64,000 nucleotides of DNA from an uncultured Nitrospirales bacterium. Its GTDB lineage: Bacteria; UBA10199; JADGCS01. The notes under the pieces were generated by a model, which was not told the DNA's origin, did not search any database, and saw nothing but the letters and a program-made list of their open reading frames with translations. Shown here one piece after another: positions 36,967-59,187 of this stretch (positions are counted from its first letter, which is position 1; each line of letters begins with the position of its first letter). The position numbers and the translations under genes are program-made. The stretch spans positions 7,341 through 71,340 of the forward strand of contig CAZGMS010000072.1 of NCBI GenBank assembly GCA_964526915.1, given 5' to 3'.

Positions 36967-36968
36967 AG

Positions 36969-38132
36969 TCACGATTTCCTTGTCATTACAGGTTGTACAA
37001 ACGACAAACAATCCACCCACCCCTGAACATAAGTGTGAATGTTGTATCTGTTATTAATGATATCCTGAGCATGGCTTTTCAGACGTTGTTTGTACGGCTG
37101 ATCCTCACACATTTTTTTCAAATAACCACACAGGCGTTCTTCATTCAGGTCTTCGTCAAGAACGCCATTATTTTTATTGATCAGATCAACCTCACACCCA
37201 TCTCCCGCCGTTGCAATGACCGGTACCCCATGTAGCAATGCGTCAGATATGGCCAATCCTCCCAATCCAGGCAAAACCATTACATCGGCCTTGAAAAAAT
37301 ATTGTGAAACCCCATCCCTCTGTTCTCCAACAAATTGAATATTCCTGATGTTCCATTCACGCGCCAAAGAGCGTAACCTGGCATCGTCCTCTCCCTTGCC
37401 AACAATCAACAAGCACACTTCTTGAGACACAAATTTTTCCAGTTCCGCAAAGGCCTTCAACAAAACATCCACTTTTTTCTCTTTCGTAAGAACCCCAACA
37501 TACAACACCACAAAATCAAACCGAGAATGAATGTCTCTGTAAAGAAGGGAACGGTCAAAACAAGCCATATCCTTGAGTCGTTGCTCGGTATCCACAACAT
37601 TCAACGCCACAAAGATTTTATGGGAATCAATACCAAGGCGTTCATAATACGCTTTGCCCACAGAACTGTAAGTCAAACAGGCCTCTGAACGACGCTCTAA
37701 AAAGTGAATGATCGGATCCATGACTCTACGATGCCATGATTTTTTGCGCTTGCTGATTTCACCCAGACTCCACTGAACAACTTTGCGTCTGAACAGCCAA
37801 GCATAAAATTGGGCTTGCATGCCATTGAGAAAATTGGAGGCCCCCTTTACAACAACCACATCGGGTGAGAACCTGAGAAGTTCAATAAACACAAACGGAC
37901 TGAATGACGAGTAACCTTTTCCATTTGATGTGCTGATCCGAATGGGTATTGAAAACATTTCTTTTGATGCAAAGCTATGCGATTTTTTTGAATTAACAAG
38001 CTTAGTGCCTTTCACATCACAGCCATGAAATACTTTGATGTGCAAACTTTCAACCTGACTCAAGCGTTCGTAAACTGAGACCCGGTAATCTTGAATGACA
38101 CGAGGCAATATGGCAACACGCATTTTTGTCAT
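36969..38132 (-). CDS. Glycosyltransferase family 4 (GT-B)
   Basis: 387 aa. C-terminal VLPGLGGLAISDALLHGVPVIAT donor-binding motif. Confidence 0.75.
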   Translation of the reverse strand: MTKMRVAILPRVIQDYRVSVYERLSQVESLHIKVFHGCDVKGTKLVNSKKSHSFASKEMFSIPIRISTSNGKGYSSFSPFVFIELLRFSPDVVVVKGASNFLNGMQAQFYAWLFRRKVVQWSLGEISKRKKSWHRRVMDPIIHFLERRSEACLTYSSVGKAYYERLGIDSHKIFVALNVVDTEQRLKDMACFDRSLLYRDIHSRFDFVVLYVGVLTKEKKVDVLLKAFAELEKFVSQEVCLLIVGKGEDDARLRSLAREWNIRNIQFVGEQRDGVSQYFFKADVMVLPGLGGLAISDALLHGVPVIATAGDGCEVDLINKNNGVLDEDLNEERLCGYLKKMCEDQPYKQRLKSHAQDIINNRYNIHTYVQGWVDCLSFVQPVMTRKS

Positions 38133-39124
38133 GCAGACACTATCCTTTTAACGTCAGAAAAAGATAATGTCTTTGTTTCCAAAAGCAGGGTTTTTAACGC
38201 CTGATGAGTCTTTGCTGTCCACAACTTGGGATGATGCACCCACACTTGAAATAACCGTTTTTTTTGTCTGCCTTTTTTGAGTTGTTTCATGACCAAATCA
38301 ACACTAGCCAAATCAAGGGTAGATGACCTCAATTCAGACAATAGTAATCGTAAAATTTGTTTTGCCAACGGCTTGGGCTTACGCAATCCCTGACCATCAC
38401 CACAACGAGCGCTCCTGCGCATTTGGAAATAATTTTTTAACAAGGTCCTTCCTGAAATCTTCACCGAAGTCATGGGTACTTCAAAAAACTTACCCAGTTC
38501 TTGTGGCAAACACGGATCATTTTCAAAACGCCAGTAATCTTTTTCCTGCGGTGCTTTTGTAAAATCATATGCTGCTTGCTCGTTATCATTGTTTGCAATC
38601 CCTGGCCGCACACTAAAATCATAGTGCAAACCCTGTGATAACATGTGATTCTTCAGTTCTTGAAACGGCTGAACACACCAGCCACCAGCCCTGAAGGCCT
38701 GCACTTTGTATGCTGGACAAACTTGCTGGACAATCTCTTCAATCATCTCCTTGCCACTTGCAATCAAAGCACCTCTCTCGCGCTCACCCAAGGATTGTAA
38801 CCGGTATCTCTCGTGAGTCTTGAATGTCCACTCGTTACCATTTAGCGGTACAGCATCAAGCCATTGTGGATGCAAATGCAAACCAAAATCATGGCCCGCT
38901 TTTGCCATCTCAATGATTTGTGCCCTGACTTTTTCAAAATCAGGGTGTCGTTGTGCAACAAGATGCAAAAGGTAGCTGGCATCAATAAAGAAGATGCCTG
39001 TCGCATTGTGTTCTTTCAATATCTGTAAAATAGCAGATGTCGGTTCAAGGAGACATTTCTGTGCTGTCCCGCTATGAGCACCCAAAAAAAGCTCATAATC
39101 AAATGTGAGAACAATCTGATTCAT
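38129..39124 (-). CDS. Polysaccharide deacetylase family protein (CE4-like)
   Basis: 331 aa. IVLTFDYELFLG and GHDFGLHLHPQW. It resembles the deacetylase that accompanies FemAB-like genes in EPS loci. Confidence 0.7.
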   Translation of the reverse strand: MNQIVLTFDYELFLGAHSGTAQKCLLEPTSAILQILKEHNATGIFFIDASYLLHLVAQRHPDFEKVRAQIIEMAKAGHDFGLHLHPQWLDAVPLNGNEWTFKTHERYRLQSLGERERGALIASGKEMIEEIVQQVCPAYKVQAFRAGGWCVQPFQELKNHMLSQGLHYDFSVRPGIANNDNEQAAYDFTKAPQEKDYWRFENDPCLPQELGKFFEVPMTSVKISGRTLLKNYFQMRRSARCGDGQGLRKPKPLAKQILRLLLSELRSSTLDLASVDLVMKQLKKGRQKKRLFQVWVHHPKLWTAKTHQALKTLLLETKTLSFSDVKRIVSA

Positions 39125-40118
39125 GTGATCGTGCTCTTTCTTGATCGATAATGTCGCCTGTATATTTCAACCCCCTGGCATAGGCATTCAGTTTGGCCGT
39201 GGCTGTGAACAACTTATAGCGCAAGGGTTTCAAAGGGTATTTCCACAAATAGCCCACCTTCAGCTGGCCTCCAAAACGCGATTTGAACCGCTGAATACTT
39301 TCCTGCCTGGAGCCTGGTAGCGGCGACATTCTGGCACCCATAAAATCATACACAAGCACTCCGTGCGCCTTCATGTCCAACATGATCTTCCACTGCAAAT
39401 AATTCATTGCTCCCAAACTTGGTCCTTCAATACTGCCACCATGCAAATAATATGCAGAGCTCCCTGCTTTCCAAATCACAACGGCACAACCCTGACTTTT
39501 ACCATTTTTTTTTGCCACATAAAATGAAACTTGGTCTCCCAACTCGGCGGCCAACCTCATTAATTCACCTTTCCTTGCCCACGGGAGGGATTGTCGTTGC
39601 ATGGTCTGTTGTATCAAACGTGCACATTCATCCAGATATTCAGTCCCTGATACAATTTGCACTCCCTCCGCCATTGCCTTTCTGATGACATTTCTATGTT
39701 TGTGATGGAGCCCGGCAAACAAATCACTTTCCTGTGCTGTCAAATCAACTTGGAATGAACTGAACTGGCAATGAATGGAGTTTTGAGGACACGCACGAAA
39801 AACGGCGGAGGTATGCGGCTGATAGATAAAATCAACATTCAGTTGTTTTGACAACTCAACGACCTCACCTAAAAAGAGTCTCTCCGCCTCTGCTGATACC
39901 GGCTCCACAAACACAGTAGCGGAAGGAAAAACCAGTCTGTTAAAAAAAGCCCTGCGCTCAACAACATAGGGCAGTATCATTTGGTCAGACACAAACCAGC
40001 CGTATTCACCCGATGAACGAGCCTTCAAATAGCCCTCTGTGGCCACAATAGGAAGAGGCGTCAATAAGACAGGTTCTGTTTTTTCAATTTTGATCAACAA
40101 AGTTCTCAACTTTTGCAA
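39099..40118 (-). CDS. FemAB-family / GNAT-fold aminoacyl transferase-like protein
   Basis: 339 aa. SSAYYLHGGS and RFKSRFGG motifs are characteristic of FemA/FemB/FemX-like proteins. Confidence 0.65.
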   Translation of the reverse strand: MQKLRTLLIKIEKTEPVLLTPLPIVATEGYLKARSSGEYGWFVSDQMILPYVVERRAFFNRLVFPSATVFVEPVSAEAERLFLGEVVELSKQLNVDFIYQPHTSAVFRACPQNSIHCQFSSFQVDLTAQESDLFAGLHHKHRNVIRKAMAEGVQIVSGTEYLDECARLIQQTMQRQSLPWARKGELMRLAAELGDQVSFYVAKKNGKSQGCAVVIWKAGSSAYYLHGGSIEGPSLGAMNYLQWKIMLDMKAHGVLVYDFMGARMSPLPGSRQESIQRFKSRFGGQLKVGYLWKYPLKPLRYKLFTATAKLNAYARGLKYTGDIIDQERARSHESDCSHI

Positions 40119-41172
40119 ACAAATACTTCATGCGCTCGGAATGGTCTTCGATGGGCAGTTCCACAACACAACCTGATATTTTTTCGGCACACGGAAAATT
40201 TGAAGTGTCTTCGGTCAACAAAGCATAACCCATACCGACATGAATCTGCATGGCCAGCATGTATCTATAAAAACTTTGTGCCACCTGCCTGGTCTCAAAA
40301 CAAAGAACGATTTTATGCGGTGCAGACTGACCCCGAATAGCCTTGATGATTCTGAATTTCTTGCCATCAGAAAATTTGTTCATAAATGCATCGTGATATT
40401 TTTTTCGAAAAGCAAATGCTCCTCCCAACATACCGTGTACAGTCCCTCCCAAAAAACATTCCTCAAAAGAACCAAAACCATCATTGTAAAGAAAATGGGC
40501 GCGTTCCAAAAAAACATTCAATATATTCAGAATCCAAAGACAACAGGACCAATAACTCCAAAAAAAATCTTTTTGCCTTCCATACCTAAACAGCAACCAT
40601 CTCACAAAATGCACCAATGGGTGATGAGTCAGTTTCCAATCATAATCCAAATTATCTGTCCAAAAGAAGCCCCCCATGGCACCGGGAGTGGCCTTGCCGG
40701 GACCAATAGAAAACAATCCTGCATTGCCAAATGTTCCGAGAAAGCGACCATCCAACACAGCACCAAAACTCTGCGCTGAGTCATCAATCAGAAACGCCCC
40801 ATTCCCTTTACAAATCAATTCAATGTCACTCATGCTGGCGGGATTGCCATACAAACTGGGAGCTACCAACGCTGATACATCGTTTTCCTGCAAACATTTT
40901 TTGATGCTTGCCACTGATGGGTTGAGATCCTCCTCGTCGCAATCAAAAAAAATGGGGGTTAATCCCAGACGTCTGAGAGGAACTAATAATGACCCACAAG
41001 CGTACGCGGGCAAAGCAACATTGCCCTTTGCCGAAAAAGACCTCAGAGCATGATAAATACCAGCTTTGCCACTTGCGGCATAATGCCAATCCTTACCCGT
41101 TATCTGATTGAGTTTTGGTAAATCAAGGGGGCACTCATCAACAAAAGGCGGCCTAAACTTGGCTATTTTCAT
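40084..41172 (-). CDS. Divergent DegT/DnrJ/EryC1-family PLP aminotransferase
   Basis: 362 aa. LIDDSAQSFGAVLDGRFLGTFG and FSIGPGKATPG (candidate PLP Lys). Confidence 0.6.
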   Translation of the reverse strand: MKIAKFRPPFVDECPLDLPKLNQITGKDWHYAASGKAGIYHALRSFSAKGNVALPAYACGSLLVPLRRLGLTPIFFDCDEEDLNPSVASIKKCLQENDVSALVAPSLYGNPASMSDIELICKGNGAFLIDDSAQSFGAVLDGRFLGTFGNAGLFSIGPGKATPGAMGGFFWTDNLDYDWKLTHHPLVHFVRWLLFRYGRQKDFFWSYWSCCLWILNILNVFLERAHFLYNDGFGSFEECFLGGTVHGMLGGAFAFRKKYHDAFMNKFSDGKKFRIIKAIRGQSAPHKIVLCFETRQVAQSFYRYMLAMQIHVGMGYALLTEDTSNFPCAEKISGCVVELPIEDHSERMKYLFAKVENFVDQN

Positions 41173-42419
41173 AAAAACAGTTCTTCGTACCTTTGAGTCA
41201 AGTGAGGGATATCAAAGTTGTCAAAATCGCATGATGGCATTTTTGCAGACAAATAATCTTCTTTCATTTGTTTGAGGGTCTTAATGATATCATCTACATC
41301 ATAGCGGGCCACATAATGCCCCTTCACCTTCAGCAATTCATACAATTCACCACCATTTGAAATCAGGAATATTTTTCTTCGAGTGGCCATGTAATCAAAG
41401 ACTTTTGTTCCAAAGGCATAGGGATACATTTCGGCATTAATACTCAAACCAAAACTGTAAGTTGGCATATTGGCCGAGATTTGCTTCAAGGGGGTTTCTG
41501 AATAACGGTGAAAATATTTACTGAACACGGCTGAGTCTCTCATTACGCTGTACAGTGCATCCTGGTCTTTGCCAAAGATATCCACCGTAAAATTATTTTG
41601 AAAATATTCATCTTGCATCTTATTCAGGGCAGAACACAAAAGGGTAAATGCGGGTATTCGCGAATCCGGGATATTGCCTATGTAAATCATTTTAAAGTCT
41701 GCCAAGCCCGGGTTTATGATGGCACAGCCATAATCATCAACATCATAACCATTGTGAATACAGACAAACTTTTTTGAAAAAGATCCATAGGTTTTCTTCA
41801 TTCTATGCAAAATGTCATTTGTGGGAAATACGATGACATCCGAATAAATCATCGATACAATTTCCATATAAACTGATTTTTCCTTCTGCCAAAAATAATT
41901 CAATTTTTTTAAATACTGGTAATCAACATCATCGTTCCAGGAATCACGATAATCTTGAATCAAATGAATCTCTGGATTTTCAATTTTAAGAAATGCGCTG
42001 GTATAATGAAGAGAACTCGGAGGCCCTGTGACCACAACGTTTTTAATGTGGTGTTCTTTGATGACGGCCCGGGCACAGGGAATCAGTTTTGAGCCCCATC
42101 TTTGGGCAGGATCCAAGTAGTACATCGTCTTCATGAGAACAAACCGTAAAAATTTTCGAAAATACCTTCCCAAAATATTTTTTGATGATGATGACAACAG
42201 CCACATAGGGTAATTGGCTGAAATCCTGTGAACATGAATATTTTCGTGTTGAACATCTGTTCCCCAATTTACATTCCCTTTTTTTGAACATTTGGTTGTA
42301 ATCACATGGACCACATAGCCCCTTTGGGCCAAATATTTAGAGAATTTTGCCCAACGGCGCGTACCCACACCCCCCATAGGGGGGAATTTAAACGCAATCA
42401 CTAGTAATTGTTTTTTCAT
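41169..42419 (-). CDS. Glycosyltransferase, GT4-like
   Basis: 416 aa. N-terminus LLVIAFKFPPMGGVGTRRWAKFSKYLAQRGYVVHVIT is typical of the GT4 N-terminal domain. Confidence 0.6.
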   Translation of the reverse strand: MKKQLLVIAFKFPPMGGVGTRRWAKFSKYLAQRGYVVHVITTKCSKKGNVNWGTDVQHENIHVHRISANYPMWLLSSSSKNILGRYFRKFLRFVLMKTMYYLDPAQRWGSKLIPCARAVIKEHHIKNVVVTGPPSSLHYTSAFLKIENPEIHLIQDYRDSWNDDVDYQYLKKLNYFWQKEKSVYMEIVSMIYSDVIVFPTNDILHRMKKTYGSFSKKFVCIHNGYDVDDYGCAIINPGLADFKMIYIGNIPDSRIPAFTLLCSALNKMQDEYFQNNFTVDIFGKDQDALYSVMRDSAVFSKYFHRYSETPLKQISANMPTYSFGLSINAEMYPYAFGTKVFDYMATRRKIFLISNGGELYELLKVKGHYVARYDVDDIIKTLKQMKEDYLSAKMPSCDFDNFDIPHLTQRYEELFL

Positions 42420-42430: not shown

Positions 42431-43795
42431 TTATGTTGCTGTTAAGATATTTTCAAAACATTCCTTCCATCCTGGCCACCCCAAATCTGAAAACATTGTA
42501 TTATGAGAAAGAAGGGTAAAAATCCCCTGGTACTTTTTAACCTGCTCTTTTAACTTGCTAAGACCACCATGCACGACTTCCATATCACGCATACCCTGAT
42601 ATTTGTAAAATGCCCCATCCATTGCTACCAAGGGCAACTCTCTTAAGCGAAGTTTTTTTTGCGATAGGATATTGAAAACTGGGTAATCCTGACACACACC
42701 GCACCTGAACCCAGCCATCTCAGGGTATCCTAACGTGGAATCAACTGCCATCCCATTATCTTCCCAAATCTGCCACGTTGTGGGCACCTCAAATTTCAAA
42801 TAGTGCTGTCTCCCAGATTGAACGCCCTCCCAGCCCTGATTTGCCAAGACTTGATTCAATCTCTGCTTTTCGATTTTCCACTTGTTTCCATCATTACATG
42901 TATCATAGCCCGGGTGAAATCCAATCACATGTTCATTCTCCCTGATTATCCTCAAATTGTGCTCGGCAAACACGGTATCCAATCTATATCCCGAATCACG
43001 CCTGCTTTTGACAGCAGACATGAAATTAAATTGGATGGTCGCATCACATCGCCTTCCCATATCGACCAATTCAGAGTAAAGATCATAGGGATCCTTGTTG
43101 CCAAAATGTCTACAAGACAAACTGCCCACCATACTCTTTGAAGCCGCTCTCAGACTTTTATTAAGAAGAAGATCACCGCCTACTCTACGAATCAGACCCC
43201 AGACATCTTGGGGATAATAGGTCAATATATCCACATCAATACTGGGAGCCATACGATAACGACTGTGCTTTTTCTGTGCCTGCCCATCCAAATGATGAAT
43301 CATCCGAAACAACATTTGAGCATATTCATGCACTATGGGCCGTTCCAAGAAACCCTGTTTGACTGCAAGCGACTGATCTGCAGGAAATCGGCCATGAATA
43401 TCGCGAATGAGATTAACGTGTTCCTCCCACCTCGTCAGCATGAAAAAAGATGACGCAAAGACATCGACACCACAGATGATTCGGTCTGACGACACAGAAC
43501 ACTCATCAGTACCAAAAATAGTGGGCAAAGGAGCCTTATCAACAAACTGGTTATCAACAAATGAGGTGCGAGAAGGGATGTTGCGATTATCCAAATAGGT
43601 AACATCAGAACAAAACTGGTTGAAAAAGTTATCCCTCACTACAATGATTTTTCGATTTTCCAATACAATTTCATAATCCTTGATTGGTCTGGCACAGACA
43701 CAGACATCAATCCCCAATAATTCCCTAAAAAGAACCTCAATAACATATTCCCGTTCGGCTACATGGTTGTCCGGAATGTTGATAACAATACCCAT
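42431..43795 (-). CDS. Putative polysaccharide deacetylase-fold protein with an extra N-terminal domain
   Basis: 454 aa. C-terminal half has VIGFHPGYDT, GRQHYLKFEVP and VDSTLGYPEMAGFRCGV...LPLVAMDG. The pattern is shared with ORF 8403-9230. Confidence 0.4.
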   Translation of the reverse strand: MGIVINIPDNHVAEREYVIEVLFRELLGIDVCVCARPIKDYEIVLENRKIIVVRDNFFNQFCSDVTYLDNRNIPSRTSFVDNQFVDKAPLPTIFGTDECSVSSDRIICGVDVFASSFFMLTRWEEHVNLIRDIHGRFPADQSLAVKQGFLERPIVHEYAQMLFRMIHHLDGQAQKKHSRYRMAPSIDVDILTYYPQDVWGLIRRVGGDLLLNKSLRAASKSMVGSLSCRHFGNKDPYDLYSELVDMGRRCDATIQFNFMSAVKSRRDSGYRLDTVFAEHNLRIIRENEHVIGFHPGYDTCNDGNKWKIEKQRLNQVLANQGWEGVQSGRQHYLKFEVPTTWQIWEDNGMAVDSTLGYPEMAGFRCGVCQDYPVFNILSQKKLRLRELPLVAMDGAFYKYQGMRDMEVVHGGLSKLKEQVKKYQGIFTLLSHNTMFSDLGWPGWKECFENILTAT

Positions 43796-43796
43796 T

Positions 43797-44522
43797 CTAA
43801 ATTCTTTCTCTCCTAGAACCCGATAACCAACGACTTAGTAGTAACCGACTTTGTCTGGCTATTTTGATACAAGTTCTTCTTTTGATGGCCTTGATCAATT
43901 GTGATTTATCAATATCACTCATCAATGTTTTTTTTGATTTGATCATGACCATACCGCCCGTTTTCACTGCACTCAGAAACTCGCCGTGTTGATTCAAAAC
44001 AACAATGCAATTTTCCAACTCATTCAAAGAATGAGCATCACCCGCATAACACATACCCTTGCCGTGTTTTTTGGCCAAATCCATTGCCCGTATATTGTCG
44101 ACATTTCGACATCTTGCATTAAACACCTCAATCATATCCACATCTTCCGCAAGCTGATTGATATTTTTATGACCTACATACGGGTGTGGCAACAACAATA
44201 ACCCTCCTTGCTCCCGAACTTCTCGAACAAATGCAGCATATTTGCGAGACTCAATTTCTTTATGAATTCCCATGGCAATCACATCACCATATTCTGTTTG
44301 ATATTCGGCAGAAAGAGGCACTTCAATATTGAGATGATTTTCATTGCAATGCTTCTTGAGTGCCAGCGAACCTTGGATGCTGTCGTGATCCGTCAATACT
44401 AAGAAATCGAGTTTCTGCGCATTGGCCCAGCGAGCCAACCGGGGAATCGACATCACAGAATCATACGAATAGGCTGAATGACAATGAAAAATACCCTTAC
44501 GATTCATACTGGCCATGCACAC
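43797..44522 (-). CDS. PHP-domain metal-dependent phosphoesterase
   Basis: 241 aa. GIFHCHSAYSYDS, DFLVLTDHDS and LLLLPHPY give the His/Asp pattern of the PHP family. Confidence 0.75.
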   Translation of the reverse strand: MCMASMNRKGIFHCHSAYSYDSVMSIPRLARWANAQKLDFLVLTDHDSIQGSLALKKHCNENHLNIEVPLSAEYQTEYGDVIAMGIHKEIESRKYAAFVREVREQGGLLLLPHPYVGHKNINQLAEDVDMIEVFNARCRNVDNIRAMDLAKKHGKGMCYAGDAHSLNELENCIVVLNQHGEFLSAVKTGGMVMIKSKKTLMSDIDKSQLIKAIKRRTCIKIARQSRLLLSRWLSGSRRERI

Positions 44523-45648
44523 AATACTTCACAAATGTTTTGGCAAAGTGCCCTGCCATTTTTATAGTGGGGCGAATATCCGACAGTTGACAGTTATTTT
44601 TTACACGCAAACACAGAGTATCTTTGATCACCCCACACATGGCCTTTGGTCTGAGCATACCGTACATGATGTCGCCATTGAATGGCCAAGTGTACCTGAG
44701 TTTGGATTTTCTGCAAACATCGATCGCAGGTTGCTTACCCAAATGCAGATCCACCATCATTTGCGGGAAATTCACCCCCGCAGAAATGGCAAGCTCAATA
44801 GATCCCCAGAGTTTGGCGTTAATTTCCATCAAAAAGGGACGACCTGATTCATCGACCTTGAATTCGACCATGGCCAAACCATGCCACTGCAAAGCATCCA
44901 AAATTTGTTTTCCGTACTCTGCCACCAATGGATTGAAACCAGTTTCAGCCGCCACACTGCGGCCTCCGCTGGGTGGCATTTCACGAATTCTGCGGTGCTG
45001 AAATGTCACACAACATTTGCCATGATCATACAACGCAAAAAAACCACACCCGTATCCCTTTATGTATTCCTGTAACATCGGTAACAAAGACCCTTCCAAG
45101 TTGTGCTTTTCACACAGCGCATGATACTTGCCCAAAAGATCCCTGTGATGCTCAACATAATCGATCACGTTAACACCCGCTTCCTGCTTTCCCTTGATCA
45201 CAAGGGGGAATTTCAGGGTAGCTCCCAATACTGAGATTTCTTCCCTGTTAAGCGGGTAAAAGGTTTTGGGATAAGGAACACCTATCTTTTCAGCAAGCGC
45301 GTACGTTTTTTCTTTTGACATGGCAACATCGATCTTTGATGCTTCAGCAATCACAATGTCAGAACACAGCCTGATCTCATCCTGCAATTCACTCATGATA
45401 CTGTTGGCCTTGGCACCAACAGGCATGACCATGTCTATCTGATATTGTTTTAAAATATCCAGAAAGGTTTGGTTAAACTCCGGCAGTTCATATTTGGGGA
45501 CAATAATTTCATCAGCGCAATATTTTGACAACGCCGCCAATGAACCGGGCCTATGACTCATCACATAGACTGTGTGGCATTCCTTACCCAAAGCCCTCAC
45601 CACGCCGAGCGTGTGTGTGTAGTTTCCATCTGAAACCAATATTTTCAT
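44497..45648 (-). CDS. ATP-grasp ligase (second copy)
   Basis: MKILVSDGNYTHTLGVVRALG and LAMVEFKVDESGRPFLMEINAKLWGS. The Met at 45648 gives an ATGA overlap (tcat at 45645-45648). Confidence 0.75.
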   Translation of the reverse strand: MKILVSDGNYTHTLGVVRALGKECHTVYVMSHRPGSLAALSKYCADEIIVPKYELPEFNQTFLDILKQYQIDMVMPVGAKANSIMSELQDEIRLCSDIVIAEASKIDVAMSKEKTYALAEKIGVPYPKTFYPLNREEISVLGATLKFPLVIKGKQEAGVNVIDYVEHHRDLLGKYHALCEKHNLEGSLLPMLQEYIKGYGCGFFALYDHGKCCVTFQHRRIREMPPSGGRSVAAETGFNPLVAEYGKQILDALQWHGLAMVEFKVDESGRPFLMEINAKLWGSIELAISAGVNFPQMMVDLHLGKQPAIDVCRKSKLRYTWPFNGDIMYGMLRPKAMCGVIKDTLCLRVKNNCQLSDIRPTIKMAGHFAKTFVKYCVHGQYES

Positions 45649-46406
45649 TTGTGAAGAATAAGAAAATAAAATGCTGAACAACGTGGAATCGCAGTTGCCA
45701 AAAATCTGTCCAGCTTATTGAATAGTGCAAATAAGCCACAACGACCTAACACGCGCAACACAGTACTCCAACACAAAAACAGACAAGTGCCATTTGTTTC
45801 CATAATCTTGAAACCCGCATTGCTTACAAGATTTTCGATATCGTGTGCTGAAAACTGCCAATGACAGAATGATTCCGGAGACACCTCTTTGCGATGTAGC
45901 TGTTTTTCGCGTCTCCAATATAAACTATTTTTATTGGGCATGGAAAAAATGATCTTACCATCATTTTTTAGGACACGGCGCAACTCATCTAAAGCCTTGG
46001 GTCTGTTTTCCACATGTTCAATCACTTCACTGCATATGATCAAGTCAACACTATCGCTCTCCAAAGGAATTTCTGTCAAATCTGCTATGACAATTTCTAT
46101 TTTATCCAAGAGTTCTGGATACTTTTCAAAATTCTTTCTCATCCGCACCACTTCTTCCCTTGAAGATTCAAGGGCCACAACACGAACAGCCACTTTACTT
46201 GCCAAATAAGTATTTGGCCCTTTTCCTGCCCCCGCATCCAGAACTGTCCTGGCAGGATATGTTTTCAGATACTGATTGATCAATGTGACCCGTTGACGAT
46301 GTTGATAGCGCCAAACGGAAAACTGATCACCGTAATCATGAAAATCATCCATGAAAGGCAACGGATAGGCATTGGCAATATCGTCAGATTGTGCAACATT
46401 CCACAT
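45645..46406 (-). CDS. Class I SAM-dependent methyltransferase
   Basis: 253 aa. VLDAGAGKGPNT and LIICSEVIEHV. Confidence 0.8.
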   Translation of the reverse strand: MWNVAQSDDIANAYPLPFMDDFHDYGDQFSVWRYQHRQRVTLINQYLKTYPARTVLDAGAGKGPNTYLASKVAVRVVALESSREEVVRMRKNFEKYPELLDKIEIVIADLTEIPLESDSVDLIICSEVIEHVENRPKALDELRRVLKNDGKIIFSMPNKNSLYWRREKQLHRKEVSPESFCHWQFSAHDIENLVSNAGFKIMETNGTCLFLCWSTVLRVLGRCGLFALFNKLDRFLATAIPRCSAFYFLILHK

Positions 46407-46414
46407 GGACTCTG

Positions 46415-47155
46415 TTATTCCCTTTTGATGATGATGGCGTGTCCATTCAAATTATGAATGACCACGCGATCATTTTTTTGCATCTGCTCATTCACATACT
46501 GTGTGATCCCCGAGCATCCACTAAAACCAAAATCATCGTAAACGATCATGCCACCGGGAACCAATCTGTCCCAGATCCAATCTACAACCCCTTTTGCTGA
46601 TTCGTACACATCAACATCTATGTGGCACAATCTAAATTTTTCATCTGCCACAAGAACTCCTGTCTGGTCCGGAAAAATTCCTTGAAGAACTTTTACATTG
46701 GCGTAGGAAGCCACCTTCTTTAATAAACATGTCACTAGTTCCTTCGATGTATCTGCATGCTCGCCACCTTTGTATGTGGTGTCATGGACCCCCGCTTTGA
46801 CCACACCGGAGAATGTATCACACAAATACACTTTTTCCCTGATGCCACAATCGGAGGCCCGTCTGGCCAAAAGAGCACCGGTCCCTCCACGCCACACACC
46901 AATCTCTATGATGCTTCCCCCACTCAATTTGGCACACTGGGCCACCAACGCGTACAATTCAAAACACCTATATTTGTCCACCAATGTGTGATCTTTGATC
47001 TGGCCATACAGTGTGATGAATTGTTGATCAGTATTCCAAGGGGCATAGGTAGCCTTGGGGATGATCGTTTCGTATTGGGCATCGCTGGTAGTCACAGTAC
47101 GAAGCATTCGAAATCCAAAATGATTTAGAATATTCTTAATGTGTGTTTTGAACAT
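46415..47155 (-). CDS. TylF/MycF-family (macrocin-type) O-methyltransferase
   Basis: 246 aa. IIEIGVWRGGTGALLA, CDTFSG and LCHIDVDVYES. Confidence 0.75.
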   Translation of the reverse strand: MFKTHIKNILNHFGFRMLRTVTTSDAQYETIIPKATYAPWNTDQQFITLYGQIKDHTLVDKYRCFELYALVAQCAKLSGGSIIEIGVWRGGTGALLARRASDCGIREKVYLCDTFSGVVKAGVHDTTYKGGEHADTSKELVTCLLKKVASYANVKVLQGIFPDQTGVLVADEKFRLCHIDVDVYESAKGVVDWIWDRLVPGGMIVYDDFGFSGCSGITQYVNEQMQKNDRVVIHNLNGHAIIIKRE

Positions 47156-47159
47156 GTCA

Positions 47160-49046
47160 TTACTCGCTAACAGACCAGACCTTTTTCCACAAATAAAGAG
47201 AATACAAACGGCTTACCAAAGACCAATCCTTGATCTTGTTTTGCGTATATTTTTGATAATATGCATATATTTTTTTATGATTCAAAAAAGAAAACAAGCC
47301 ATTCAGATGAATATCATTAAACACACTATCAAAATTCTCTTTCAAACCCGTTTTTTGCCACAGAATTTCTGGCAATTCAAAACCAGTTTTATCGCTTCTA
47401 TTTAGAATACTCTCAGGCACCTTGCCTTGTGCTATGGTTCTCAATATTTTTTTGGAAACACCTTCATGAATTTTTTTGTCATCACCAAGGGAAAATGCTT
47501 TCTCCACCAGACGATAGTCCAAAAAAGGCAGGCGACTTTCCAAGGAAAATCGCATGGAGTTGCGATCTTCGTATCTCAAGTATTCTCTCAAGGCTGACAC
47601 CACAAGGTTGTTCCATTGCTGATTCTTTAATCTGCTGGTATATTTTTTTTGCGTCTTGACACTCTCATAATTCGTAACAAAAATATCATGCTTGTTTTTT
47701 GGTCTATAAATATCTGACAAAATCTTCGTGAAGACATTCGCACAAGTACGCAGGCAAGATAGATTTCTTGTCGTGCAGTAGGCACGCAGTTCTCTCACAA
47801 AACTCCCAAACTTTAACCTCAAAAGCAAGTCTGACAAGTAGGTATAATGATATTCCGTATAGCCCGTAAAAATTTCATCAGCACCCTGTCCATTCAACAA
47901 GACTTTTACATGACTGTTCTTTTTAATGTATTCATAAATCAGATATTGGGAATAAACAGCCAGGCCTCTCCACGGCTCTTCATGCACATACACCAGTTCA
48001 TTTAATTTTTCGATCAAACCTTCCGTTTGTGGATAAACAAAATGTTTTTCCAATTTGATGTTTCTTGTTTGAAACTCATCAATGTATTTTTTTTCACTAA
48101 AAGCCTCGTCGTCAAACACAACTGAAAATGTTTTAAATGCTCCAACATATTGTTCTGCATCAATCAGTCCCAAAATGGTGCTGGAATCAATGCCACCACT
48201 CAATAGTGAACCCACTTCCACATCTGACCGCAAACGCAATCGAATAGAATCTTTGAGAATGTTTTCTATTTCTAGTTGGGTGGCTTGAGGATGATCATGC
48301 ATTTTCCAATAGCTGTAAGTTGTTAATCCTGCTCTTGAAAACTCACAATATGTGCCTGGCTCAATTTGCAAAACATCCCTAAACATCGTCTGCTGAGTGT
48401 GATCCGAATAGCTGTACCTCAAATACTGACACACCATCTCACGATTGACATATAGTTTATCGAAAAACGACGATATAAACTTGATTTCACTTCCAAAGAT
48501 CAGATTATCATCAACAAAGGAATAATAAAGCGGCTTTATTCCAAATCTATCACGCGTAAGTGTGAGTTGATCTTTTTGGCTATCGTAAATAGCGGCCGCC
48601 CACATCCCGTTGAACCTGCAAAAAGCCTCCGTACCCCAACAATGAAAGGCCTTCAGGAACACCTCTGAATCAGCACTGGTGGTGAAACAATAACCTTGGG
48701 ATTTAAGCACTTCCCTGATTTCAATGTAGTTATATATCTCTCCATTATACACAAGACACAACCCTTCATAGCGATAAGGTTGGTGCCCCAAAGGAGTCAG
48801 ATCAATGATACTCAGCCTCCTGTGTCCCATAATGAGTCCGGACTTGTCTTTGTTAACAATGTGTTCATAACCAGCAAGTTCTTTGACGGTATCATCCCCT
48901 CTTAAGGCCTCAATAGTCTTATCATAGTTTTGATAAACAAATCCTTCATCATCAGGTCCCCTGTGTTTTAGTTTTAGGTGTGCCTGATAGAACCGTTTGG
49001 GATCAACTGTATTTTGATATGAAAAAAAACCAGATACGCCACACAT
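47160..49046 (-). CDS. Asparagine synthase (glutamine-hydrolysing)-family amidotransferase (AsnB/WbpS-like)
   Basis: 628 aa. N-terminal nucleophile MCGVSGFF and PP-loop LLSGGIDSS. Confidence 0.9.
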   Translation of the reverse strand: MCGVSGFFSYQNTVDPKRFYQAHLKLKHRGPDDEGFVYQNYDKTIEALRGDDTVKELAGYEHIVNKDKSGLIMGHRRLSIIDLTPLGHQPYRYEGLCLVYNGEIYNYIEIREVLKSQGYCFTTSADSEVFLKAFHCWGTEAFCRFNGMWAAAIYDSQKDQLTLTRDRFGIKPLYYSFVDDNLIFGSEIKFISSFFDKLYVNREMVCQYLRYSYSDHTQQTMFRDVLQIEPGTYCEFSRAGLTTYSYWKMHDHPQATQLEIENILKDSIRLRLRSDVEVGSLLSGGIDSSTILGLIDAEQYVGAFKTFSVVFDDEAFSEKKYIDEFQTRNIKLEKHFVYPQTEGLIEKLNELVYVHEEPWRGLAVYSQYLIYEYIKKNSHVKVLLNGQGADEIFTGYTEYHYTYLSDLLLRLKFGSFVRELRAYCTTRNLSCLRTCANVFTKILSDIYRPKNKHDIFVTNYESVKTQKKYTSRLKNQQWNNLVVSALREYLRYEDRNSMRFSLESRLPFLDYRLVEKAFSLGDDKKIHEGVSKKILRTIAQGKVPESILNRSDKTGFELPEILWQKTGLKENFDSVFNDIHLNGLFSFLNHKKIYAYYQKYTQNKIKDWSLVSRLYSLYLWKKVWSVSE

Positions 49047-49114: not shown

Positions 49115-50425
49115 TTAGGCACAAAACAGACCCAGATTCACCATAAATATCAATAAGTACACAGAAAATACTGTCACTCTGTACCTACAACTCATATATT
49201 GTGCTGCTACGGATTGCATGATTAACGAATAAATAAAAAGTCCTGCGAAGCTTGCAAAGGCGGATCCAACAACACCATAGGGGAGTATCAAATACCAATT
49301 TAATAAAGCATTAACCCCAAAGGAAACAAAAGCTATCACAGGATAAATCCAAACTCTCTTATGATAACCCAATACAAGAGCAGGAATTTTATAAAAACCG
49401 CCCATCATAAATCCAGCCATAACAAATGGCATCACTGTTGCAGATTCAGAATATTTTTCATTTGAAATAAGTGCGACCAAAACAGGACTTAAAAATGAAA
49501 CAATAATTGTTATGACAATGAGCCCTGCATAATACAAGTAAGAAAATTTTTCTAATTCTGCCTTGGCTTTTACATAATCACTGATCATGTCATTAAATAC
49601 TTTTGGCAACATGGCCTGCGATACTGACTCATACACAATGGATAGACCTCTGCCGAGCATATATCCCAATGTGTAAATACCAACCGCTGTATTGCCGATG
49701 TAATGTTTCAGAAAAATTCTATCAAGGTACAGGAATGCAATGCCCTGTGTCATAGAAATCATCCCAGGCAACGACAACAAAAAAGTTTCCTTTGCCATCA
49801 ACCTGTTAAAAACCAATCTTATTTTAAATAAATTATTTTTTGCAAACTCTTTTAACAAAGAATAAATATTTACACCGTAACCAATGCCCTGCCCGCTTAT
49901 TCTGCCAAGGATACCTAAATTGAATACTGATATTAAAATAAATGATGTCGCATGATTAACAAGCGTTTGAAATATTGAATGCTTAAGAACAGATGTGGAC
50001 TTGTGTTCATTGTATAAAATTCTTGTAAAAAATGAAACATACACTGAGGCAATGCCAGTACCCAATGTCACCATATAAATTGTACGGGTTTTTATGGCTA
50101 TCCAATCAGAGATCAAGGGCATAAAAATCAATCCAATTATCAGTACCAATGCTGCTTGAAATGTGAGAAACCATAAAATCGTACTTAAATATTCATCGCG
50201 ATGCGTTTTTCTATAGTCAAAATAAAATCGGGTAGCACTGCTATCAAGATTCAACGATGCCAAGGTCTTGATGTACTCAAACATAACCAGGTACATCGCC
50301 AACACACCATAGTCGGCTGGTGTGAAAACGAACGTATAATATTTTGTCATGAGCACCGTGGCAACCGCCGCAATGAGTGATCCTGTAAAAAATTTTGGTG
50401 CGTGTTGAAAAACAACTTTGAACAT
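49115..50425 (-). CDS. wzx: Oligosaccharide flippase family protein (Wzx-like, MOP superfamily); flippase no. 2
   Basis: 436 aa and polytopic. N-terminus FTGSLIAAVATVLMTKYYTFVFTPADYGVLAMYL parallels Wzx no. 1. Confidence 0.7.
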   Translation of the reverse strand: MFKVVFQHAPKFFTGSLIAAVATVLMTKYYTFVFTPADYGVLAMYLVMFEYIKTLASLNLDSSATRFYFDYRKTHRDEYLSTILWFLTFQAALVLIIGLIFMPLISDWIAIKTRTIYMVTLGTGIASVYVSFFTRILYNEHKSTSVLKHSIFQTLVNHATSFILISVFNLGILGRISGQGIGYGVNIYSLLKEFAKNNLFKIRLVFNRLMAKETFLLSLPGMISMTQGIAFLYLDRIFLKHYIGNTAVGIYTLGYMLGRGLSIVYESVSQAMLPKVFNDMISDYVKAKAELEKFSYLYYAGLIVITIIVSFLSPVLVALISNEKYSESATVMPFVMAGFMMGGFYKIPALVLGYHKRVWIYPVIAFVSFGVNALLNWYLILPYGVVGSAFASFAGLFIYSLIMQSVAAQYMSCRYRVTVFSVYLLIFMVNLGLFCA

Positions 50426-54461: not shown

Positions 54462-55393
54462 ATTGATTTCTTTGAGTTGAAGTTATGTAGAACACTTTTT
54501 ATTTTCCAAAAAAATGGTACTTTTGGAAGGTTGCCATACCCAACATAATCACATACCCGACATAAATCGCTACAATTTCGATTTTGTCGAGACAGTTCTC
54601 TTCTCATTTTTTGAAACTTTGTCCCAAACCAGACTTCAAACAATGAAGCCTTGTTAAGATCTCCCATTTCATTCATATTATAAAAGTCATTGATACAAGA
54701 ACAAACCATTCCGCTAGGTTTAATATACATTATCTCATACACTTGATCACAGGGTGCTTGGCAGACCTCTTTATAAAATTGCTTTACATTCCCAGCGCGA
54801 CTCGTCCACGTTTCCTGATAGGTTCTATTGATATGTGTAATTTTCTTTACCAAACTATCATCCAATTGGGATAACATATTCAAGTTTCGCTCACAGGCCT
54901 TGTCATCATATGAATTTAAATATATATGATTCAAACCATCATGAAACAACTGAGAAACTCTGTGTGTTGTTAATAAATCACCATTTGTTGTAATAAATAT
55001 CCAAGCCCTGGGAAGTTTTTTTCGGGCATATTTTAAAAATTCATTAAATCGTTTATCGGTTAATGGCTCATTAATCTCATATAAGCTCAAAATCCCCGAA
55101 TATGAAATTGAAGCCAATTCATTAATAATACGTTTAAATAACTTCTCATTGATATTCTGCTTGACTGGCGACCTTTCCAGCCCATAATGACAAAAAGAAC
55201 ACTTTCGTGTGCACATATAATTGGTCTGAATTTTAATGTGCTTAAAAAGATCTTTGTCGGCTAATCCTTGTTTGCGCCTAAAAGACTGATAGGGATTCCG
55301 AATATTCCTAATATACCAATCTCTCAAAAAGACTTTCGTCCTGATACGTAAAGGAATATTATTTTTCCAATCATCACTCATAATAAGAAACAT
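54458..55393 (-). CDS. Radical SAM enzyme with Cys-rich SPASM/twitch-like C-terminus
   Basis: 311 aa. CX3CX2C in NYMCTRKCSFCHYG. C-terminal Cys cluster CQAPCDQ...VCSCIND...NCSDLCRVCDY. Confidence 0.8.
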   Translation of the reverse strand: MFLIMSDDWKNNIPLRIRTKVFLRDWYIRNIRNPYQSFRRKQGLADKDLFKHIKIQTNYMCTRKCSFCHYGLERSPVKQNINEKLFKRIINELASISYSGILSLYEINEPLTDKRFNEFLKYARKKLPRAWIFITTNGDLLTTHRVSQLFHDGLNHIYLNSYDDKACERNLNMLSQLDDSLVKKITHINRTYQETWTSRAGNVKQFYKEVCQAPCDQVYEIMYIKPSGMVCSCINDFYNMNEMGDLNKASLFEVWFGTKFQKMRRELSRQNRNCSDLCRVCDYVGYGNLPKVPFFWKIKSVLHNFNSKKSI

Positions 55394-55394
55394 T

Positions 55395-56645: not shown

Positions 56646-56667
56646 GGTAGCTTCCTCCTATGATGAT

Positions 56668-57489: not shown

Positions 57490-57518
57490 AGTTTACCTCT
57501 CCACTCTGATAGGGTTAA

Positions 57519-59147: not shown

Positions 59148-59187
59148 CTTTTAACCACAATATTTATCAGTTATCCTGACAAGGAAA

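Follow-up and report, generated by a model that had tools for sequence, protein, structure and literature searches.

A VimE-like deacetylase, an ATP-grasp ligase, and a PHP phosphatase form a widespread yet undescribed three-gene unit, recognizable by gene families, folds, conserved catalytic residues, gene linkage, fusions, and synteny. One copy lies in a seven-gene block of the 64,000-nucleotide stretch of uncultured Nitrospirales DNA analyzed here (the window). The likeliest role of this core module is to exchange the N-acetyl group on an amino sugar of a surface glycan for a different acyl group, which would make the block a variant Wbp/Vim-type cassette for an unusually N-acylated amino (uronic) sugar, a reading that we favor with moderate confidence from sequence comparison. 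The preliminary description had proposed amidation, methylation, dephosphorylation, and acylation of an amino or uronic sugar; that general idea and the gene families stand, while three points were missed or wrong.

Layout of the block and its flanking genes

All seven block genes are real, with open reading frames matching their coordinates exactly on the minus strand, and each family named in the preliminary description was borne out by HMM searches. From the upstream end, they encode a WbpS-like AsnB-type glutamine amidotransferase (47160..49046; Pfam Asn_synthase, 7e-62; GATase_7, 4e-38), a TylF-family SAM-dependent O-methyltransferase (46415..47155; Pfam TylF, 3.7e-19; Methyltransf_24), a class I SAM methyltransferase (45645..46406; Methyltransf_11, 5.5e-21), an ATP-grasp carboxylate-amine ligase of the ATPgrasp_Ter/PRK12767 type (44497..45648; ATPgrasp_Ter, 1.3e-11; Pfam and NCBIfam matches), a PHP-family trinuclear metal phosphoesterase (43797..44507; Pfam PHP, 2.4e-8), a DUF7033/VimE-like de-N-acetylase (42431..43795; PF23019, 2e-27), and a GT4-type glycosyltransferase in the VimF position (41169..42419; Glyco_transf_4, 2.8e-7). 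Intergenic spacers are 4, 8, -4, -11, 1, and 11 nt, and the earlier figure of at most 8 nt thus holds for every junction except the last.

Tight packing continues far past the block, as far as rmlA at 32337. A Wzx-type flippase (49115..50425, minus strand; Polysacc_synt, 3.4e-16) lies 68 nt upstream, and in related loci Wzx is commonly found upstream of the DUF7033 cassette. The downstream part of the operon (38129..41172, minus strand; Pfam and NCBIfam matches), where start and stop codons overlap, encodes a divergent DegT-like PLP enzyme, a VimA-related FemAB/GNAT transferase matching TIGR03019 (pepcterm_femAB, 1.3e-11), and a classical Polysacc_deac_1 deacetylase. The last two are a second deacetylase/acyl-transfer pair of the same operon. 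The ATP-grasp gene had been called the window's second, which is correct: the first, at 13513-14706, is 23% identical to it.

The amidotransferase begins with MCGVSGFF, has the Cys2 nucleophile and an SGGIDSS PP-loop from residue 283, and scores 409 bits with TIGR01536. Its homologs (1e-75 to 1e-112) occur alongside DUF7033 cassettes in loci L004, L025, L034, L071, L089, L092, L093, and L113. By analogy with WbpS/PGN_1234 (PMC7468200), it is predicted to convert a uronic-acid carboxylate to a carboxamide. L092, L122, and L132 have TylF-like matches close to the triad. The class I methyltransferase gene shares 4 nt, at its stop, with the start of the ATP-grasp gene. It has homologs no more than 2.5 kb from the triad in L098, L109, L125, L148, and L163; it is functionally tied to the PHP phosphatase, and in one fusion protein (P0389, 3.9e-30) its homolog is joined to PHP.

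The DUF7033 protein had been described as a deacetylase-fold protein with an extra N-terminal domain. The fold stands, with a CE4-like catalytic domain following that extra domain, but the VimE homology and the Wbp/Vim synteny had been missed. Residues 49-440 match NCBIfam NF053580, [quoted passage not shown] (1.7e-42), which points to a homolog of VimE; the score of 145 bits, however, is far under the 440-bit equivalog cutoff and counts against the favored model. D187, D189, H289, H294, R329, H331, and H431 are invariant, and the CE4-like Asp/His motifs are kept across the family. VimE is itself a proposed de-N-acetylase of the Porphyromonas gingivalis Wbp/Vim pathway, its activity being described as putative (PMC7468200).

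A conserved deacetylase-ligase-phosphatase module

The ATP-grasp/PHP pair is no local oddity, a point that the preliminary description missed. Together with the deacetylase, it makes up a conserved deacetylase-ligase-phosphatase module that recurs across hundreds of loci, with repeated ligase-phosphatase fusions. PHP adjoins ATP-grasp in 51 of 80 related metagenome loci. Among the 21 ATP-grasp+PHP pairs flanked on either side by 1.3 kb or more, DUF7033 is adjacent in 18, and a classical CE4 gene (Polysacc_deac_1) lies immediately upstream in 2 more, for 20 pairs adjoining a deacetylase. Co-occurrence did not refute a role in glycan synthesis, as conservation mainly outside glycan loci was to have done: the pair is overwhelmingly in such loci, beside a deacetylase. 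ATP-grasp homologs from three unrelated genomes all adjoin PHP and DUF7033. The haloarchaeon Natribaculum luteum has the order deacetylase-PHP-ATP-grasp. As a clue to the substrate, cultured Xenorhabdus budapestensis has the triad within a WbpA-WbpB-WbpD-WbpE-Wzx-...-GT4-AsnB-like locus, and the L004 triad locus also encodes Epimerase_2, AsnB, DegT, a sugar dehydrogenase, and a GFO oxidoreductase. Most triad loci are without Wbp genes in cis, which counts against the favored model. L005 and L094 are stand-alone AsnB|DUF7033-ATPgrasp-PHP units.

Fusions occur in both orders, ATP-grasp::PHP and PHP::ATP-grasp (P0423, P0359, and P0446), and three ATP-grasp::DSP-PTPase fusions all occur without a separate PHP. 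Because the ligase is repeatedly fused to two unrelated phosphatase folds, the two activities probably work one after the other on a single molecule. Since the constant partner of the module is a deacetylase, the sugar would supply the amine. A ligase-phosphatase fusion in L006 lacks a deacetylase gene, and this locus encodes a PglF-like dehydratase and DegT, a pathway that yields a free sugar amine without deacetylation; this exception counts in favor of the model.

Synteny suggests what the ligase stands in for. Of 80 genome loci, about 28 have a VimA-like GNAT immediately upstream of DUF7033, and L025, L034, L071, and L086 carry the cassette AsnB-sulfotransferase-GNAT-DUF7033-GT4. Both the window and L007 (Wzx-sulfotransferases-ATPgrasp::DSP-DUF7033-GT4) are syntenic with these GNAT cassettes. 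In the general order AsnB-modifier-X-DUF7033-GT4, X is either a VimA-like GNAT or an ATP-grasp with its phosphatase, and the block's ATP-grasp occupies the VimA slot. In a neighbor-joining tree without support values, the window's DUF7033 protein groups with the GNAT-linked clade, outside the main ATP-grasp-linked clade, whereas the ATP-grasp is typical of its own family, a contrast best read as partner swapping. In 14 related loci, the gene right after DUF7033 encodes a GT4; homologs of the block's own GT4 occur in L007, L023, L037, and L049.

Predicted acyl exchange and alternative roles for the phosphatase

We infer each chemical step, the order of steps, the sugar, and the acyl donor as follows. 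The DUF7033 enzyme would take an N-acetyl group off an amino sugar carried on a nucleotide or lipid, leaving a free amine; homology suggests that this sugar is a 2,3-diacetamido-2,3-dideoxy-hexuronic acid. In the window, homology does not fix this substrate, because no WbpA homolog was found there and the WbpB match was weak only. The ATP-grasp, the candidate N-acylating enzyme, would then activate, at its carboxylate, a small phosphorylated compound of primary metabolism, most plausibly O-phospho-L-serine or a phosphoglycerate, and join it to the freed amine, standing in for the tRNA-dependent FemAB/GNAT transferase VimA. Because a FemAB-like gene lies two genes downstream, here it would add to a VimA-type enzyme and not plainly replace one. 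PHP is proposed to strip the phosphate "handle" from the ligase product, which would then be an amide bearing a hydroxyacyl or hydroxy-aminoacyl group. Methylation, of either the sugar or its new substituent, may be the work of the class I methyltransferase and perhaps also of the TylF enzyme. AsnB would amidate the carboxylate at C6, giving a carboxamide; the finished sugar would be transferred by the downstream GT4, and the unit exported by Wzx.

The AF2 model of the ATP-grasp (pLDDT 94) has the ATP-grasp fold, with 2pn1, biotin carboxylases, and the L-amino-acid ligase RizA as nearest PDB matches, and catalytic K152, E275, and N277 are invariant. The PHP model (pLDDT 96) has the PHP fold and a complete trinuclear metal site, with H8, H10, D16, D40, H41, E68, H108, D157, and H159 invariant; its nearest folds are RNase AM/TrpH, BVU_3505, TM0559, and Cv1693. 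Fold searches with both models returned generic ATP-grasp and PHP relatives only. The PHP subfamily comprises 908 representative clusters at E<=1e-30. The listed open reading frames for the ATP-grasp (394 aa from a TTG) and PHP (241 aa from a GTG) probably begin too far upstream; independently made gene calls for an identical contig yield 383 and 236 aa, respectively.

The ATP-grasp reaction itself needs no phosphatase, and PHP could act on something else, which counts against the favored model. The ligase might couple an ordinary amino acid, without a phosphate, to the freed amine, with PHP doing a separate job in the same pathway, for example trimming the phosphate of a lipid- or nucleotide-linked intermediate or hydrolyzing a by-product. 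More distant ATP-grasps do pair with DUF7033 without a phosphatase (L009, L021, L033, L035, L043, and L064), a distant PHP homolog in Haloterrigena beside a decaprenyl-phosphate phosphoribosyltransferase hints that a lipid-linked sugar phosphate is dephosphorylated, and the strongly cationic, amphipathic C-terminal tail of the block's PHP is consistent with membrane-surface binding. We nonetheless judge this quite unlikely, given the fusions to two phosphatase folds and a PHP that tracks the ATP-grasp, not glycosyltransferases or initiating transferases.

Gram-positive capsule loci encode CpsB, a PHP enzyme similar in size to that of the block, which raises the idea that the block's PHP is a regulatory protein-tyrosine phosphatase, or else a pAp phosphatase for sulfotransferases, and adjoins the ATP-grasp by coincidence alone. 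A weak match to the NCBIfam 3',5'-nucleoside bisphosphate phosphatase (2.4e-6) and the sulfotransferases of some related cassettes fit the latter. However, no CpsB structure appeared among the PHP fold matches at E<=0.05, sulfotransferase cassettes with a GNAT partner are without PHP, and Pfam and NCBIfam searches placed no sulfotransferase near the block in the window. ATP-grasp fusions and stand-alone modules without a Wzc kinase also speak against regulation, leaving this explanation highly improbable.

Relation to known acylation and amidation systems

The closest comparison for the favored acyl-exchange model is the linking-sugar pathway of P. gingivalis and Tannerella forsythia, which comprises WbpA/B/E/D, WbpS, VimE, VimA, and VimF (Veith et al. 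2020, PMC7468200; 2026, PMC13086638), with the gene order vimA-vimE-vimF (PMC13086638) and VimE/VimA deacetylating and then aminoacylating (PMC7468200). The block likewise has a VimE-homologous DUF7033 with a GT4 after it, at the place of VimF, plus an AsnB/WbpS-type amidotransferase, and it is proposed to share the overall logic of one N-acetyl out and a different N-acyl in; elsewhere, Wbp genes accompany the triad in Xenorhabdus and L004. Unlike that pathway, the block has ATP-grasp plus PHP and not FemAB/GNAT in the VimA position, a predicted tRNA-independent, ATP-dependent, phosphate-involving route, as well as two inserted methyltransferases, no WbpA in the window, a DUF7033 below the VimE cutoff, and no demonstrated link to T9SS or a sortase.

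The preliminary description knew of no described role for an ATP-grasp plus PHP in O-antigen synthesis, but a ligase-plus-phosphatase precedent exists in capsule synthesis. In Campylobacter jejuni HS:2, the amidoligase Cj1438 (C-terminal ATP-grasp, Cj1438C) ligates a phosphorylated building block that the phosphatase Cj1435 then dephosphorylates (PMC11800379). As proposed for the block, an ATP-grasp forms an amide on a glycan sugar with a phosphorylated cosubstrate, a dedicated phosphatase follows, and both genes lie in a polysaccharide locus. This direct biochemical precedent raises the alternative that the block's ATP-grasp amidates a uronic-acid C6 carboxylate with a phosphorylated amine (ethanolamine-P, serinol-P, or phosphoserine) before PHP dephosphorylates it, the deacetylase acting independently. 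The DegT-like PLP enzyme two genes downstream recalls Cj1436/1437, and Haloprofundus has distant ATP-grasp homologs beside WbpA/B/E/D with no deacetylase. Such uronamide decoration seems unlikely here: it needs no deacetylase, yet 20 of the 21 pairs adjoin one; AsnB, expected to act on the same carboxylate, travels with the module even in the stand-alone units; the ligase is in the VimA slot; and L006 has an amino-sugar pathway, with no uronic-acid pathway seen there. The enzymes are also not homologous members of the C. jejuni system, being an ATPgrasp_Ter-type ligase and PHP (or DSP) in place of a TupA-like ATP-grasp and a HAD phosphatase. Whereas the C. jejuni sugar gives the carboxylate, the deacetylase partner points to a sugar giving the amine.

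Loci associated with PEP-CTERM/exosortase combine FemAB, a polysaccharide deacetylase, and asparagine synthase (TIGR03019 and TIGR03108; discussed in PMC7468200). The block has the same functional trio of deacetylase, acyl/aminoacyl transferase, and AsnB-type amidotransferase, and the window also carries the FemAB and Polysacc_deac_1 pair (38129-40118). No exosortase or PEP-CTERM protein was found within the window, while the ATP-grasp/PHP locus L119 has exosortase EpsH two genes away. A difference is that acylation in the focal module is assigned, as a proposal, to an ATP-grasp. The L-amino-acid ligase RizA (PDB 4wd3) and PurD-type ATP-grasps have the fold and the catalytic Lys/Glu/Asn set in common with it, but only 13-16% sequence identity. 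Their chemistry, an acyl-phosphate intermediate followed by amine attack, resembles that predicted for the block's ligase, and in PurD it is glycine that acylates a sugar amine.

Gene content of the tailoring block

Glycan-biosynthesis genes fill the window as a single long array, all on the minus strand. Within it, the ORFs found for the tailoring block at positions 42431 to 49046 coincided exactly with those of the preliminary description, and HMM searches backed every one of its family calls. The block encodes an AsnB-type amidotransferase (47160 to 49046; Asn_synthase, 7e-62; GATase_7, 4e-38), a TylF-type methyltransferase (46415 to 47155; 3.7e-19), a class I methyltransferase (45645 to 46406; Methyltransf_11, 5.5e-21), an ATP-grasp ligase (44497 to 45648; ATPgrasp_Ter, 1.3e-11; PRK12767 "CPS-like," 3e-24), a PHP phosphoesterase (43797 to 44507; 2.4e-8), and a DUF7033 protein (42431 to 43795; 2e-27), followed by a GT4 glycosyltransferase (41169 to 42419; 2.8e-7). 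Starts giving 383 and 236 amino acids were used for the ATP-grasp and PHP proteins, after gene calls on the identical public contig. Spacers had been put at no more than 8 nt, which held for five junctions (4, 8, −4, −11, and 1 nt) and failed for the last (11 nt). Overlapping genes go on downstream (DegT-like, FemAB-like, Polysacc_deac_1, GT1, an ADH::GFO fusion, heparinase-II/III-like, and rmlA), and a consensus scan of 33 to 52 kb found no excess of promoter- or terminator-like sites over shuffled expectation. The AsnB motifs MCGVSGFF (from residue 1) and SGGIDSS (from residue 283) were both present; with its Asn_synthase and GATase_7 domains, Cys2 nucleophile, and PP-loop, this protein is WbpS-type by family membership only.

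The AF2 model of the ATP-grasp protein (pLDDT 94) matched 2pn1 and biotin carboxylases in Foldseek (E of 6e-21 to 1e-17), and K112, K152, E275, and N277, the ATP-binding Lys and Mg-binding Glu/Asn residues expected of the superfamily, were invariant. The modeled three-domain fold and these conserved residues place the protein in the ATP-grasp superfamily. The PHP model (pLDDT 96) was a TrpH/RNase-AM-like PHP barrel whose top Foldseek matches were PHP enzymes (E of 8e-12 to 1e-6), and H8, H10, D16, D40, H41, E68, H108, D157, and H159 were invariant in 39 sequences, so that all ligands of the trinuclear site are kept; metal-site ligands and predicted distorted TIM-barrel fold place the protein in the PHP superfamily. 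Searching PDB sequences with the three proteins (ATP-grasp, PHP, and DUF7033) produced no useful match (for PHP, none at 0.01). Foldseek searches of the PDB returned generic relatives from which no substrate could be inferred: biotin carboxylases, 2pn1, and RizA for the ATP-grasp protein, and RNase AM, TM0559, BVU_3505, PsfC, and Cv1693 for PHP. The PHP C-terminal tail (residues ~200 to 236; window 43797 to 43910) has two predicted helices with a charge of +5 to +7 per 18 residues, amphipathic with a hydrophobic moment of up to 0.57, and contains an S-Q-x-I-K motif conserved across the family. This tail may be a membrane-surface anchor that places the enzyme on lipid-linked intermediates.

NCBIfam model NF053580, [quoted passage not shown] matched residues 49 to 440 of the DUF7033 protein (1.7e-42). 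Because the score was 145 bits against a cutoff of 440, the protein is best classed by sequence as a VimE homologue and not an equivalog; DUF7033 homologues from both GNAT-linked and ATP-grasp-linked loci scored 175 to 180 bits. Residues D187, D189, H289, H294, R329, H331, and H431 were invariant in 25 DUF7033 homologues, in CE4-like order, and Pfam Polysacc_deac_1 did not match the window protein. The closest DUF7033 match in the GTDB genome set was 45% identical. [quoted passage not shown] 2020; PMC7468200), an activity still called "putative" there. The FemAB/GNAT-like VimA then adds serine, or glycine in Tannerella forsythia, as shown by between-species gene swap, and deletion showed that the AsnB homologue WbpS (PGN_1234) makes the uronamide (PMC7468200). 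VimF, encoded beside vimE, is the likely transferase of the linking sugar according to a 2026 follow-up (PMC13086638).

Other parts of the array encode further candidate sugar modifications. In the same operon, a FemAB/GNAT gene (TIGR03019 pepcterm_femAB, 1.3e-11) overlaps a classical Polysacc_deac_1 gene at 38129 to 40118, two to three genes downstream of the block. These genes form a second deacetylase-plus-acyl-transfer pair, arranged much as in the exosortase loci that Veith et al. 2020 (PMC7468200) discuss, so that two different N-acyl groups may be installed by this locus. A first ATP-grasp gene at 13513 to 14706, whose product is 23% identical to that of the block, adjoins a second Wzx gene (11869 to 13338). 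In the stretch from 13513 to 21736, this ligase gene is preceded by acid-metabolism genes for a short TPP-dependent decarboxylase-like enzyme, MmgE/PrpD, an aldo-keto reductase, class-I fumarase-like alpha and beta subunits, and a TIM-barrel "C-C bond lyase," together with an unknown gene; the region has the look of a separate cassette for the synthesis of an unusual acid and its ligation to a glycan. Of four radical-SAM genes at 54458 to 60594, two encode B12-binding domains and one a SPASM domain; the four lie beside genes for a DegT aminotransferase, a GT2, a GNAT, and a NeuB-type nonulosonic acid synthase (53205 to 63111), which suggests that a sugar is C-methylated or undergoes another kind of radical tailoring. 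At 33203 to 37020, a 735-amino-acid fusion of a zinc-type alcohol dehydrogenase with a Gfo/Idh/MocA oxidoreductase, possibly performing WbpB-like 3-oxidation, is followed by a heparinase-II/III-like protein; two Bacteroidales MAGs (loci L060 and L062) have a near-identical architecture (1e-166) ~10 kb away from DUF7033. At its downstream end (1442 to 7042), the array has genes for a PglF-like dehydratase, Wzz, DegT, a PglD-like acetyltransferase, and a PglC-like initiating transferase, which make up a predicted pathway to an initiating sugar of the di-N-acetylbacillosamine type. This pathway and the two Wzx genes suggest at least two glycan loci in tandem.

Distribution and neighborhoods of the module

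The preliminary description had one repeat-unit sugar amidated, methylated, possibly dephosphorylated, and acylated by these genes. That interpretation was supported in part: the block is better described as a variant Wbp/Vim-type amino-sugar tailoring cassette, built around a widespread three-gene deacetylase-ligase-phosphatase module.

Homologues of the ATP-grasp protein numbered 277 at E<1e-5, mostly from uncultured lineages, with a best full-length match of 46% identity. Three unrelated genomes had contiguous ATP-grasp, PHP, and DUF7033 genes: an Aminicenantes MAG; a genome of 2.9 Mb, in which Epimerase_2, GT4, AsnB, DegT, Bac_transf, sugar dehydrogenase, and GFO oxidoreductase genes follow; and a Bacteroidetes contig, where AsnB and DUF7033-ATPgrasp-PHP stand alone amid housekeeping genes. 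A metagenome scan with the ATP-grasp alignment yielded more than 585 relatives, from which 80 loci were kept, and PHP adjoined the ligase in 51 of these. For 21 ATP-grasp/PHP pairs, both flanks extended at least 1.3 kb; 18 of these pairs had DUF7033 adjacent, and two of the three exceptions had a classical Polysacc_deac_1 gene directly upstream of the ligase; therefore, 20 of 21 pairs were attached to some deacetylase. The third exception, locus L119, lacks a DUF7033 neighbor and has an exosortase EpsH gene (L119 11038 to 11943) two genes downstream of the pair, which hints at a link of the module to PEP-CTERM protein sorting. All 30 loci with the three genes had the order DUF7033-ATPgrasp-PHP (16 loci) or ATPgrasp-PHP-DUF7033 (14 loci).

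The module is also present in two cultured organisms. Xenorhabdus budapestensis (GCA_002632465.1, contig NIBS01000015.1) encodes WbpA-WbpB-WbpD-WbpE-Wzx-ATPgrasp-PHP-DUF7033-x-x-GT4-AsnB-like-GT1 between cpxRA and cysE, and a megaplasmid of the haloarchaeon Natribaculum luteum IBRC-M 10912 (NZ_CP095398.1, 716346 to 719009) encodes GT2-polysaccharide deacetylase-PHP-ATP-grasp, with matches to the window proteins at 1.7e-19 (PHP) and 4.3e-46 (ATP-grasp). Overall, the module ranges across Bacteroidota, Aminicenantes, Patescibacteria, Gammaproteobacteria, and Haloarchaea, and a profile of the PHP subfamily hit 908 representative clusters at E≤1e-30. Literature searches returned nothing for DUF7033, for an ATP-grasp, PHP, and deacetylase neighborhood, for N-acylation by ATP-grasp enzymes in O-antigens, or for the threonine-attaching enzyme MMP1084/AglU of Methanococcus maripaludis; as far as that literature shows, the module is undescribed so far. 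N-terminal extensions of some long ATP-grasp ORFs (L145 to L147) and the genes after L091 and L097 had no Pfam match. AAA_14/DUF4143 ATPase genes occur at the edges of or inside glycan loci (window 131 to 1276, L003 4046 to 5191, L009 2498 to 3748, and L012 9080 to 9742), in L009 between ATP-grasp and DUF7033, and an IS1595 transposase lies in the ATP-grasp/DUF7033 gap of L012. Both insertions point to surroundings of the module that are often rearranged.

Gene fusions link the ligase to a phosphatase. Three homologous proteins are ATP-grasp::PHP fusions (P0423, P0359, and P0480), one is a PHP::ATP-grasp fusion (P0446), and three are fusions of ATP-grasp to a DSP/PTP-type phosphatase (P0077, P0082, and an ORF of locus L138). 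Locus L007 contains no PHP gene, and DUF7033 and GT4 directly follow an ATP-grasp::DSP fusion. Finding two unrelated phosphatase folds in the same role argues that phosphomonoester hydrolysis is integral and comes next to ligation. Because PHP is fused to a homologue of the window class I methyltransferase in P0389 (3.9e-30), and related methyltransferase genes lie within 2.5 kb of the three-gene set in five other loci, that methyltransferase probably acts on the same substituent.

A genome scan with the DUF7033 alignment found 342 relatives, and neighbors were clustered in the 80 loci analyzed. An Acetyltransf_6 GNAT was the upstream partner in about 28 loci (position −1 in 23), and these GNATs match TIGR03019 weakly, like VimA. 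In 13 loci, the upstream gene encoded an ATP-grasp protein, and in 5 an Antibiotic_NAT acetyltransferase. A recurrent AsnB-sulfotransferase-GNAT-DUF7033-GT4 cassette (L025, L034, L071, and L086) is collinear with both L007 (Wzx-sulfotransferases-ATPgrasp::DSP-DUF7033-GT4) and the window, where Wzx (49115 to 50425) is followed by AsnB-TylF-methyltransferase-ATPgrasp-PHP-DUF7033-GT4. A neighbor-joining tree of 115 DUF7033 proteins, calculated without support values, contained one large clade that was exclusively ATP-grasp linked, mostly to ATP-grasp plus PHP, and placed the window, L003, and L088 proteins among GNAT-linked sequences. The window DUF7033 protein matched GNAT-linked homologues at better than 1e-100 and the ATP-grasp-linked clade at only 1e-18 to 1e-62; the window ATP-grasp protein matched all ligases of the three-gene set at 1e-77 to 1e-102. 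The pattern suggests modular partner swapping.

Proposed reactions and acyl donor

The most economical reading of these gene associations is that the deacetylase would expose a sugar amine, the ATP-grasp ligase would acylate it, and the phosphatase would take off a phosphate brought in by the acyl donor. Locus L006 encodes a ligase::DSP fusion and no deacetylase; its PglF-like dehydratase, DegT, and PglC-like transferase represent a pathway that yields a free sugar amine without deacetylation. Distant ATP-grasp genes beside DUF7033 have an opine-dehydrogenase-like gene upstream in L043 and L064 and a methyltransferase upstream in L009 and L035, which fits ligases attaching amino-acid-like acids to sugar amines. 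The octopine/nopaline-dehydrogenase-like genes directly precede the ligase gene (L043 5774 to 6838 and L064 6154 to 7188) and could provide amino sugars with N-acyl groups of the opine type (N-carboxyalkyl amino acid).

Because the Xenorhabdus locus has no special-acid gene, the donor should be a primary metabolite with both a carboxylate and a phosphate. With O-phosphoserine, the result would be an N-seryl group as in P. gingivalis, and a DSP phosphatase would have a natural substrate in the phosphoseryl amide; the second obvious choice would be phosphoglycerate. We infer that one of these two may serve as the donor.

In a rival explanation, the ligase takes plain amino acids, with PHP working at some other point of the pathway. 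Lipid-linked substrates are hinted at by the cationic amphipathic PHP tail and by a plasmid of Haloterrigena sp. KLK7 (L174; NZ_CP149788.1), where the gene for a distant PHP homologue (28% identity) comes straight after one for a decaprenyl-phosphate phosphoribosyltransferase (4026 to 5681), but the ligase-phosphatase fusions weigh against such a remote role. The Haloterrigena protein may be a phosphatase for lipid-linked 5-phosphoribose, analogous to mycobacterial Rv3807c. Synthesis of a free small molecule unrelated to glycans by the ATP-grasp/PHP pair and a role for PHP as a pAp phosphatase serving sulfotransferases were also considered and rejected.

To our knowledge, many N-acyl groups on the surface-glycan amino sugars of bacteria and archaea lack an explanation, and few of the enzymes responsible for them have been identified. 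If the deacetylation-acylation-dephosphorylation model holds, it would represent a new ATP-dependent re-acylation of sugar amines with a phosphorylated donor, provide a function for DUF7033 outside Porphyromonas, and explain a class of ligase-phosphatase fusion proteins.

Comparison with known systems

In Wbp/Vim loci, a VimA-type FemAB/GNAT gene lies directly upstream of vimE, whereas the window has PHP and ATP-grasp in that position. The FemAB-like gene of the window (39099 to 40118) is two genes downstream, and its product is distant to the GNATs preceding DUF7033 (one match, 9e-6). Searches of the window with the Xenorhabdus Wbp proteins gave no match for WbpA, only a weak one for WbpB (8e-5), and several to DegT genes; the missing genes may lie outside the window. 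WbpA or other Wbp genes were likewise absent in cis from most loci with the three-gene set. A product of the Wbp/Vim type would be expected to act as the acceptor for protein anchoring by T9SS PorU or another sortase; no sortase-type gene was present among the scanned window ORFs. It is improbable, in our estimate, that the module is a tRNA-independent route to an aminoacylated linking sugar (e.g., seryl via O-phosphoserine) whose amine anchors secreted proteins to surface glycans via T9SS PorU, exosortase, or other sortase-like systems. If it were, the P. gingivalis anchoring principle would extend to many phyla, Archaea included. A CpsB-like tyrosine phosphatase identity for PHP was rejected, since CpsB was absent from its fold matches and the gene follows ATP-grasp rather than kinases.

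In Campylobacter jejuni, glucuronate is joined to serinol-P or ethanolamine-P by the ligase Cj1438C, after which the phosphatase Cj1435 cleaves off the phosphate (PMC11800379). The main rival to acylation of a sugar amine takes its regiochemistry from this system, with the sugar carboxylate as the target. We rank it lower because it leaves the obligatory deacetylase unexplained, because AsnB, expected to claim the C6 carboxylate, co-travels with the module, and because the ligase positionally replaces VimA. The ligases also differ in family, since Cj1438C is TupA-like (PMC11800379) whereas the window protein matches Pfam ATPgrasp_Ter and PylC-like_N and no TupA-like family, and the phosphatase here has a PHP or DSP fold and is fused to the ligase in relatives. 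The proposed two-step logic, ligation of a phosphorylated donor followed by removal of the phosphate, nevertheless has its biochemically proven parallel in Cj1438C/Cj1435 (PMC11800379).
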